The notes under the pieces: model-generated
The model's input: only the letters and a program-made list of their open reading frames with translations
Databases searched by the model: none
Told to the model about the DNA's origin: nothing
Program-made: the position numbers and the translations under genes
In this document: positions 47,036-47,460 of the stretch, in pieces
How positions within the stretch are numbered: position 1 is the stretch's first letter
Layout of the letters: every line of letters begins with the position of its first letter
From: a phage
Strand: one strand, 5' to 3'
Length of the DNA: 64,000 bases
Assembly: GCA_012474735.1 (NCBI GenBank)
Contig: GCA_012474735.1_4085.1

Positions 47036-47257
47036 TTTGTAACCCTCATTCAGTAGTTTATGTAAGTATTATACGCTTTTAAAAACATTTGTCAAACTAT
47101 TTTATCAGGGGAGTTTTTCGTGTGCCTTACTCCTGGGCTACTTAACGGGGAGTTACTTATTTCGTTCCCCGTCCTGATGTAAAACATTATACGCCTTTAA
47201 ACATAGTTTGCAAGTACTTTTTAAAAATAGTTTTCAGTACTGAATAGTAAAAAGGTA

Positions 47258-47286
47258 TTGACAGCACTATCCAGTACTGGCATAAT
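47258..47286 (+). promoter_or_regulatory. plus-strand sigma70-type promoter (TTGACA-N17-GCATAAT), convergent with 47402-47430
   Basis: TTGACAgcactatccagtactgGCATAAT followed by ACCCACCGGGTGCACAATTGTAACTGT. Confidence 0.5.
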
Positions 47287-47401
47287 ATACCCCATGACAA
47301 CAGCTAACCCACCGGGTGCACAATTGTAACTGTACTAAACTAATTTTTCTATAGATACACTTCCGCACCCTATGGGCCACGGCTTATCTGCCAATGAATA
47401 C

Positions 47402-47430
47402 ATTATGCCAGTACTGACATTTTAAGTCAA
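47402..47430 (-). promoter_or_regulatory. minus-strand sigma70-type promoter (TTGACT-N17-GCATAAT)
   Basis: rc reads TTGACTtaaaatgtcagtactgGCATAAT followed by CCCATAGGGTGCGGAAGTGTATCTATAG. Confidence 0.5.
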
Positions 47431-47460
47431 TACCGGCAATTGTAAATATTTGTAAACTAC

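Follow-up and report, generated by a model that had tools for sequence, protein, structure and literature searches.

Facing promoters in the terminal repeat of an Asteriusvirus jumbo phage probably belong to paired copies of a structured RNA module

The window analysed in this work is a 64,000-nucleotide (nt) stretch of phage DNA (GenBank assembly GCA_012474735.1, contig GCA_012474735.1_4085.1), and two promoters face each other in its region 47190-47460. We conclude that this region probably consists of two tail-to-tail copies of a repeated module that lies in the terminal repeat and makes structured RNAs. Comparisons among copies and genomes show the module to be a conserved and apparently strand-specific RNA element with its own predicted promoter, confined to RaK2-like jumbo phages and, in them, to the terminal repeats.

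The window comes from an Asteriusvirus jumbo phage of the G17/PBECO4/121Q group, and positions 46300-48100 are 98% identical to Escherichia phage vB_EcoM_G17. The G17 counterpart of 47036-47460 is unannotated intergenic DNA with one hypothetical gene on either side. The minus strand carries nearly all genes from position 1 to ~54 kb. In phage fEgEco12, the genome ends and a 20,993-bp direct terminal repeat have been confirmed by restriction digests (PMC13070987). When the window is mapped to fEgEco12, position 1 of that genome corresponds to window position 50516 and the inner repeat boundary falls near 30070, so that by this mapping the terminal repeat covers 30070-50516 (~20 kb). If the two phages share their ends, as their homology suggests, the facing promoters would be in the terminal repeat, ~3.1 kb short of the physical end of the genome.

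Results

Two facing promoters each read one copy of a short motif

The two promoters and the units that they read are listed below. Promoters were scored by the number of matches out of 12 to the sigma-70 hexamers, with the background taken from Markov simulations. R1 is the covariance model used to search for the module, with a cut-off of E < 0.01 for a unit in the window.

47258-47286, plus strand: module B promoter; TTGACA at 47258-47263, 17-nt spacer, CATAAT at 47281-47286; 11 of 12 matches, with an extended -10 (TG at 47278-47279)
47294-47341, plus strand: module B RNA, short class; R1 match at 47297-47341, 23.7 bits, E = 2.6e-4; predicted start A47294
47343-47395, minus strand: module C RNA; R1 match at 47343-47397, 58.2 bits, E = 1.8e-15
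47402-47430, minus strand: module C promoter; TTGACT at 47430-47425, 17-nt spacer, CATAAT at 47407-47402; 10 of 12 matches, with an extended -10 TG

An earlier sequence-only reading of this DNA had placed four promoters here, two of them facing at about 120 bp and each reading through one copy of an ACCCAC-GGGTGC motif. All four promoters are present, with matches to sigma-70 hexamers far above chance. The convergent geometry is real, with 115 bp between the facing -10 elements, and each facing promoter reads one copy of the motif, CCCAYNGGGTGC, at 47308-47319 on the plus strand and at 47376-47365 on the minus strand. In the whole window, 35 promoter-like sites have at least 11 matches (4.8 ± 1.8 in the simulations), 25 of them inside the terminal repeat, and 13 are perfect (0.23 in the simulations). 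Three of the five strong plus-strand promoters of the terminal repeat belong to modules. The module B promoter is kept in seven aligned Asteriusviruses, with a degenerate -10 in CMSTMSU, and both hexamers of the module C promoter are invariant in seven relatives. The two facing promoters have a 15-mer in common, CAGTACTGGCATAAT, as an 18-nt inverted repeat, and the spacers of both contain the palindrome CAGTACTG, which is the source of the TG of the extended -10.

The predicted starts, A47294 on the plus strand and A47395 on the minus strand, would give the two transcripts a mutual overlap of ~102 nt. No intrinsic terminator, defined as a GC-rich hairpin with a U-run, was found at 47190-47460 between the facing promoters; across 3.5 kb, terminator-like sites number three, with 2.7 expected. 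As nothing appears to terminate transcription between the promoters, overlapping antisense transcripts and collision of polymerases are expected.

The motif is part of an RNA module with a covarying hairpin

The motif CCCAYNGGGTGC forms the second hairpin of an RNA module of ~56 nt. It occurs in nine exact copies in the window, compared with about 0.06 expected from our own base-probability estimate, and each copy lies 21-29 nt 3' of a sigma-70-type -10. The same 21-29-nt offset between a -35/-10 pair and the motif is found in 67 of the 68 units from relatives, whose promoter spacers differ in sequence. The module is built from a near-consensus promoter and an RNA predicted to begin ~7 nt past the -10. 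This RNA contains, in order, hairpin 1, a 3-nt linker, the invariant hairpin 2 (R-CCC/AYN/GGG-U), GC, six mostly purine bases and a tail, GYRUCY. In module C these parts read UGGC-AGAUAA-GCCG (hairpin 1), GCCC-AUA-GGGU (hairpin 2), GC, GGAAGU and GUAUCU (tail). Module B is antisense to the local genes; its hairpin 2 is ACCC-ACC-GGGU at 47307-47317 and its tail is GUAACU.

Hairpin 1 has a variable, covarying stem of 3-5 bp (variants include GAC/GUC, GUC/GAC, UGGC/GCCG, UGAG/CUCA, GGAG/CUCC, AGCA/UGCU and ACCG/CGGU) and an A-rich loop of 6-7 nt (for example GAGAAA, GCGAAA, AGAUAA or AGAACAA). We assessed covariation in a gap-free seed of 13 copies, in 75 distinct model-aligned copies and in separate loci from metagenome contigs, with column shuffles and a partner strand slid by 1-3 columns as the controls for hairpin 1. 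We note that alignments fitted to a model are biased toward the structure of that model. In the seed, all four pairs of hairpin 1 vary on both sides, and 97% of the cells are paired over both hairpins. Over the 75 copies, 93% of the hairpin-1 cells are paired (16-60% in the slid controls), with 107 double-sided changes against 38 in the shuffles, and the metagenome loci reproduce this result.

The outer pair of hairpin 2 is A-U in 38 copies and G-U in 35. The tail is complementary to GGGUGC in 91% of the cells (33-65% in the slid controls); this second pairing is rich in G-U, and its changes are limited to G-U to G-C and U-A to U-G. Tail pairing and hairpin 2 are mutually exclusive. The alternative folds are predicted to differ little in stability (-3.9 versus -2.8 ± 3.0 kcal/mol), and tail pairing is the better one in 37 of 74 copies. 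Only when the module is read in the sense of its promoter do the abundant G-U pairs form. This favours an RNA transcribed from these promoters over a site in the DNA or a transcript of the opposite strand.

Several other readings of the module were tried and rejected. Tail pairing does not serve as a general intrinsic terminator, since only 14 of 102 units have at least five U in the 8 nt after the tail. Thermodynamic folding offered a long-range stem or pseudoknot between a hairpin-1 loop, AGAUA, and the tail UAUCU, but the same tail occurs in units whose hairpin-1 loop is GCGAAA or AGAACAA. A coding sequence is rejected on the reading frames, which differ among units, and on the indel classes (21 versus 25-29 nt); copies of CCCATAGGG, read by eye, have a TAG stop in a shared frame. 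Two further ideas were dropped: a decoy of the CsrA-binding GGA type, since GGA is not a conserved feature of the purine tract, and a CRISPR-repeat mimic, for which the hairpin is too short.

The module is confined to the terminal repeats of RaK2-like phages

R1 finds ten units in the window at E < 0.01 and one weaker unit, all at 31472-49496, and no unit in the 43.6 kb of the window outside the terminal repeat. Besides modules B and C, the copies are as follows.

31472-31522, minus strand: module copy, E = 9.7e-11
33735-33790, minus strand: module copy, E = 1.9e-19
36744-36794, minus strand: module copy, an R1 match upstream of a paralogous ~210-bp cassette
39100-39154, minus strand: module copy (D), E = 1.1e-8
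40777-40832, minus strand: module copy, E = 1.4e-18
44813-44907, plus strand: module A, stand-alone; promoter at 44779-44807, ending in a two-way terminator hairpin at 44887-44907
49226-49340, both strands: second convergent pair; plus unit at 49226-49281 (promoter at 49194-49222), minus unit at 49283-49340
49442-49496, plus strand: module copy, E = 6.2e-7

The plus unit at 49226-49281 is the weak one in R1 (E = 0.07) and has its own TTGACT-TATAAT promoter. Module A is a predicted small-RNA gene of ~95-100 nt, antisense to all local genes, and the hairpin at its end is annotated in G17 as the terminator of a converging gene.

The same eleven units are present in fEgEco12, inside its repeat. 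Elsewhere R1 gave 85 and 40 matches, in RaK2, 121Q, CBB, GAP32 and metagenomic or uncultivated jumbo-phage contigs, and the total exceeds 100 distinct copies from at least five RaK2-like phage lineages. In annotated records, the matches fall in regions labelled as terminal repeats. Two Klebsiella phages, RaK2 and K64-1, have module C at 81-83% identity. A nearly identical core of it is present in GAP32 (Cronobacter) and CBB (Pectobacterium), where the alignment is confined to the module.

Rfam 15 has no match in the whole window at the gathering threshold, and only chance-level matches in 47030-47470 and 44760-44930 at E up to 10. An ARAGORN scan of the window for tRNA and tmRNA found no genes. 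No similarity to the module was detected in E. coli genomes, and a specific-pattern scan of 185,579 bacterial and archaeal genomes gave one stray match, in a Dehalococcoidia metagenome-assembled genome, which suggests that the module has no host counterpart. A literature search for the motif returned unrelated papers only, and the papers on RaK2, CBB, Sharanji, fEgEco12 and PA5oct contain no description of it. PA5oct is the only relative with RNA-seq data, and its terminal repeat has no module (best R1 E-value 0.26).

Convergent pairs have a fixed geometry

We classified the context of 78 distinct units, of which 26 stand in tail-to-tail convergent pairs. The pair recurs in CBB, GAP32, 121Q and metagenomic relatives, as well as at 49226-49340 of the window, where the spacing is 45 nt. 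In abutting pairs, the two 56-nt model matches are exactly 1 nt apart, and in eight of the nine abutting pairs exactly 45 nt separate GGGTGC from GCACCC. The pairs with this 45-nt spacing come from Asteriusvirus, CBB, GAP32, a further related contig and a metagenome contig. Because about a third of the copies stand in convergent pairs of fixed geometry, we take the convergent layout to be under selection. By this comparison, the arrangement is a conserved composite with a fixed spacing and no accident of the locus. The pair at 47190-47460 forms an imperfect palindrome of ~170 bp, and the full-length RNAs of pairs are predicted to form extended, imperfectly paired hairpins of -29 to -38 kcal/mol (z about -4).

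Fourteen unpaired units are followed by a GC-rich hairpin, which in the clearest cases lies 13-18 nt past the unit; from promoter to terminator, these would be genes of about 95-105 nt.

Some pairs in related phages form a second class, with 12-23 additional bases at the centre that contain a Fur-box-like palindrome. In related jumbo phages, this palindrome (for example GAGAATGATAATCATTTAC) agrees with the Fur-box consensus of E. coli in 13-16 of the 19 positions, which hints at a possible iron-dependent block between the two promoters. The pairs of the window lack it (best match, 9 of 19).

The first hairpin has been exchanged among close relatives

A comparison of seven Asteriusviruses at 47190-47460 shows almost invariant promoters, motif and tails, and exchanges of the first-hairpin segment.

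Module C: GGCAGATAAGCC in the window, G17, EJP2 and WPEC3; TTGAAACGAACAA in 121Q and TH47
Module B: short class in the window, G17, 121Q and TH47; long hairpin GAC-GAGAAA-GUC in EJP2 and WPEC3

The first hairpin acts as a swappable cassette with conserved flanking homology, a pattern that fits recombination between copies. The convergent arrangement is kept in all 36 Asteriusvirus records that cover the region. A supposed insertion between the promoters in 121Q and slurp01 was rejected: the spacer has the same length, and the split BLAST alignment reflects the repeated class-I promoter described below.

A separate cassette lies in front of the downstream gene

On the gene side of the convergent pair, the following elements were found.

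47233-47244, no strand: palindrome TTCAGTACTGAA, a copy of the CAGTACTG motif, between the convergent pair and the class-I promoter
47186-47219, minus strand: class-I early promoter; AAGTAC, TTGCAA at 47213-47208, 16-nt spacer, TATAAT at 47191-47186; 10 of 12 matches
47096-47180, minus strand: 82-nt structured leader RNA; P1 AUCAGG/CCUGAU, P2 ACGGGG/CCCCGU, third hairpin GCC-CAGGAGUAA-GGC
47068-47095, minus strand: gene-proximal promoter; TTGACA at 47095-47090, 16-nt spacer, TATAAT at 47073-47068; 12 of 12 matches
46424-47035, minus strand: downstream early gene, 203 aa, phrog_5162

No hint of function came from the flanking proteins. About 30 near-identical class-I promoters of the form AAGTAC-TTGCA(A/T)-16-TATAAT stand before small early genes, and the cassette then continues with gttttacatc, a GGGG...CCCC hairpin, a ribosome-binding site and the small gene. 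At 47213, the element next to the class-I promoter is not a gene; it is the 82-nt RNA, which ends just before the following promoter. The sequence-only reading had described a structured leader at 47090-47190, and this leader holds up as the conserved element at 47096-47180. It has paralogs in the window at 36583-36665 and 43846-43924, and copies that are 90-92% identical, likewise between two promoters, in Justusliebigvirus muut and Vequintavirinae phage A73. The occurrence in these unrelated coliphages of ~145 kb implies a probable horizontal transfer of a non-coding cassette. The middle pair of the third, small hairpin of the leader covaries (C-G, U-A, A-U), a pseudoknot GGAGU/ACUCC is possible, and the leader has no match in Rfam.

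The leader is part of a block of ~210 bp, composed of CAGTACTGAAAAC, the class-I promoter, the leader RNA, the second promoter and the start of the 5' untranslated region. By our own estimate from the alignment, this block is ~92% identical between 47036-47245 and 36530-36740, and the genes that follow differ. The copy at 36 kb has a sense module upstream and no antisense partner. The triple tandem promoters that had been noted upstream of the gene do exist; they are best described as three stacked units, namely module C, the leader cassette and the gene-proximal promoter, and the promoter density arises because modular cassettes are stacked.

Similar promoter-early stem-loop (PeSL) cassettes have been described in T4-like phages (Arbiol et al. 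2010, PMC2839356; Comeau et al. 2014, PMC4122927). They were proposed to mediate modular shuffling, and reporter evidence in the original work indicates that their stem-loops terminate or attenuate upstream transcription (PMC2839356). The cassettes in the window resemble them in having near-consensus sigma-70 promoters, AT-rich upstream DNA (for example aaaaAGTAC-TTGCAA-16-TATAAT or aaaaaGGGA-TTGACT-17-TATTAT) and G(n)-loop-C(n) stem-loops, and they likewise repeat between small early ORFan genes with conservation over ~100 bp. In class-I cassettes, the GGGG...CCCC stem-loop follows about 10 nt past the -10; most of these hairpins lack a following U-run. In several module promoters, the stem-loop lies across the -35 (GGGATTGACTCCGGTCAGTCCC). 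Repetition and shuffling between close relatives were also found, as seen in the duplicated ~210-bp cassette, in the segment swaps and in the cassette common to unrelated coliphages of Justusliebigvirus and Vequintavirinae. The differences are that the phage here is a RaK2-like jumbo phage and not a member of the Tevenvirinae, that transcription of the modules would add a conserved ~56-nt RNA, not included in the PeSL definition, in which one hairpin covaries and a 12-mer is invariant, and that the modules are confined to the terminal repeat and form convergent pairs of fixed geometry. Promoters B and C are without a PeSL-type promoter hairpin.

The module promoters with a hairpin across the -35 are those near 31.5, 33.8, 36.8 and 40.8 kb (31530-31560, 33795-33825, 36800-36835 and 40840-40870), in which the -35 TTGACT lies within a GC hairpin followed by TTTGC (GGGATTGACTCCGGTCAGTCCCTTTGC). 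The same design is present in GAP32 and CBB, and it looks like an upstream-gene terminator that would overlap the next promoter.

Discussion

Mobile promoter cassettes of the PeSL type and small RNAs of phages are already known; what is new here is the conserved RNA module, its restriction to terminal repeats and the fixed-geometry pairs. According to the explanation that we consider probable, host RNA polymerase would fire both promoters once the DNA end enters the cell, and each transcript would fold its own 5' domain. Within a pair, polymerases would collide or read into the opposing unit, as nothing terminates transcription between them, and the outcome would be about 100 nt of complementary RNA with little net read-through. 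A pair would then be both a production site for two module RNAs and a two-way transcription block. The downstream gene would be served by its own cassette, in which the 82-nt leader RNA lies between the class-I promoter and the second promoter.

The module RNAs are most likely abundant immediate-early small RNAs, whose constant hairpin and tail would be recognised by a shared partner. We favour small RNAs because the design is multi-copy, has its own promoter and is independent of orientation, and because a subset of units has terminators at fixed offsets. We also put forward, more tentatively, that the modules may be a hitherto undescribed immediate-early class of structured RNAs, encoded only in these terminal repeats and produced in many copies from the DNA that enters the cell first. 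By switching between hairpin 2 and the tail pairing, and through an exchangeable first hairpin, they might take over or evade a host function. On this proposal, the fixed-geometry pairs, some of which in related phages have the central Fur-box-like palindrome, might be a regulated device that makes double-stranded RNA or acts as a two-way barrier. This wider proposal is doubtful.

Several observations weigh against our explanation. About half of the units (38 of 78) lack both a partner and a terminator, and transcription from them would continue into the next promoter; a purely stand-alone small-RNA reading leaves them uncovered. Single-unit folds are no stabler than shuffles (z = -0.7 to +0.45), and it is covariation that supports the structure. 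The 5' side of the tail pairing is invariant, and the case for this pairing consists of one-sided changes and slid controls, which favour a structure derived from a consensus. Module B is a low-scoring copy of the short class (23.7 bits) whose first hairpin is not convincing. Concerted evolution between copies is evident and inflates the apparent conservation within a genome; with recombination between copies, this conservation overstates the number of independent observations. No expression data for any Asteriusvirus were found in the literature searched, and the start sites, RNA ends and collisions are predictions.

The sequence-only reading had proposed elaborate control, such as transcriptional interference or antisense RNA, upstream of gene 46424-47035. 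As a control region made for this gene, it would have promoter B tune expression from the three tandem promoters. Promoter B does face promoter C and upstream read-through with no terminator between, and the arrangement is kept in 36 of 36 covering records. Antisense RNA and interference are plausible consequences of the layout. A control built for this gene is unsupported, since modules stand at 11 sites near unrelated genes or no genes, with one pair in an ORF-free stretch by the genome end. In addition, two of the gene's promoters lie downstream of the pair, out of the reach of B; at 36.5-36.8 kb, the paralogous copy of the cassette comprises a module, a promoter, the leader and a further promoter, with no antisense partner; and pairs of the same geometry stand beside non-homologous genes in other genera. 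We therefore regard gene-specific control as unlikely.

To the same degree we doubt that the element acts at the level of DNA, as a recombination hot spot, a cruciform palindrome or a protein site kept alike by gene conversion. This explanation would account for the hairpin-1 swaps seen in both units, which break within the conserved promoter and motif, for the ~170-bp imperfect palindrome, and for the confinement of the modules to the terminal repeat alongside a strong Chi excess; PeSL cassettes have been proposed for such shuffling (PMC2839356). However, the stem of hairpin 1 is kept by covariation despite complete change of its sequence. The frequent G-U pairs form in the promoter sense only and would be A-C mismatches in DNA or in the other strand. 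The 12-nt motif is also invariant across genera that have no alignable flanks, which is beyond within-genome gene conversion.

Less probable again is a cis-acting site for processive antitermination, such as lambda nut or HK022 put, that would let polymerase read through the hairpins of the early region. As in those systems, small hairpins lie just downstream of strong early promoters, in this case two hairpins at +1 to +55, and the A-rich loops of hairpin 1 recall boxB. Six of the 11 units are co-directional with genes, upstream of cassettes rich in GC hairpins. However, a third of the units are in convergent pairs and others are antisense to all local genes. After fourteen units comes a terminator hairpin, mostly at a fixed short distance, that apparently sets the 3' end, and every sense-oriented unit of the window is followed by another complete promoter. 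The consensus of the 56-nt module has no conserved segment like boxA (CGCUCUUA), and the module has no Rfam match.

Replication-origin priming is very improbable. RNAs might form R-loops as at T4 oriF and oriG, with the convergent pairs as two-directional origins, and T4-like replication genes (according to the CBB paper), the G-rich RNA segment (GGGUGCGGAG) and the terminal-repeat location would agree with this; eleven sites per 20 kb are, however, too many, and there is no conserved downstream AT-rich unwinding element. Chance promoter-like sequence in AT-rich intergenic DNA is already refuted: a loose scan for at least 9 of 12 matches over 3.5 kb gives 17 promoter-like sites against 10.4 ± 3.9 expected from shuffles, which alone is not significant, but the counts of strong and perfect matches, the fixed distance from hexamers to motif and the invariant hexamers among relatives speak against it.

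Convergent pairs are known from ColE1 (RNA I and RNA II) and from type I toxin-antitoxin systems such as ibs/sib. Like them, the pair described here has promoters facing each other about 100 bp apart and would give complementary structured RNAs. Unlike in these systems, both partners are the same module and not a target and its regulator, and a replication primer function as in ColE1 is not evident. No conserved, small, hydrophobic ORF of a type I toxin was found; the start in B yields only the 11-codon MTTANPPGAQL, which is not hydrophobic, and reading frames across the motif are inconsistent between units. In PA5oct, a distant relative, the terminal repeat encodes highly transcribed non-coding RNAs, ncRNA001 and ncRNA002, of 236-451 nt (PMC7318152). 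Like the module RNAs, they are non-coding and come from a long terminal repeat, and PA5oct is a related jumbo phage dependent on host RNA polymerase. They differ in size and have no sequence or model similarity to the module.

RaK2-like jumbo phages (PBECO4, 121Q, RaK2, GAP32 and CBB) are widely isolated for therapy, and their first minutes of infection are essentially unstudied; their terminal repeats have so far been annotated only as rows of hypothetical proteins. The intergenic DNA of these repeats is not filler: it holds a self-promoted RNA family, a second structured RNA, PeSL-like cassettes and a Chi cluster. If expressed as predicted, the module RNAs would be among the most abundant early phage transcripts and would be candidates for an RNA-based function in host takeover or anti-defence. 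The covariance model can be used to annotate modules in any related genome.

Additional observations on the terminal repeat and its surroundings

The palindrome CAGTACTG has 59 sites in the window, with about one expected, and is dense in 48969-50585. At the locus of the facing promoters, its sites are 47233-47244, 47272-47279 and 47409-47416. A -10-like hexamer follows within 0-3 nt at 34 of the 59 sites (17 ± 3.5 at random positions), and 15 of these 34 also have a -35 (2.8 at random). Many of the remaining copies fall within coding regions, and AGTACT adjoins the -35 of class-I promoters. The palindrome may be an operator or a phage-specific promoter element.

The ~1.6 kb at 48886-50516, directly at the presumed genome end, has no ORFs. 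It contains three modules (the second convergent pair included), 12 CAGTACTG sites, a Chi palindrome and further strong promoters at 49532 (plus strand) and 50151 (minus strand). The Chi sequence GCTGGTGG has 11 copies in the window, where 0.54 are expected; they span 31440-49939, all within the terminal repeat, and nine of the 11 are on the minus strand. An inverted Chi pair, CCACCAGCttgtGCTGGTGG, stands at 49920-49939, ~590 bp from the presumed genome end, and in related phages Chi is found within the spacers of module promoters. The clustering of Chi suggests that the linear ends are protected from RecBCD.

A DksA/TraR-type zinc-finger ORF is located at 38606-38863, ~250 nt downstream of module D (39100-39154); it corresponds to g030 in fEgEco12 and to 1331-1587, without annotation, in phage UB. 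At 54900-63500 the genes turn to the plus strand, and seven large ORFs (358-433 aa) follow in a row. A repeated sequence, tatttaatacaaataagaaagccagtacagAGTACTGGCAT..., lies upstream of these ORFs on the minus strand, at 57268, 62215 and 63437, and judging from this repeat the seven ORFs may be paralogous.

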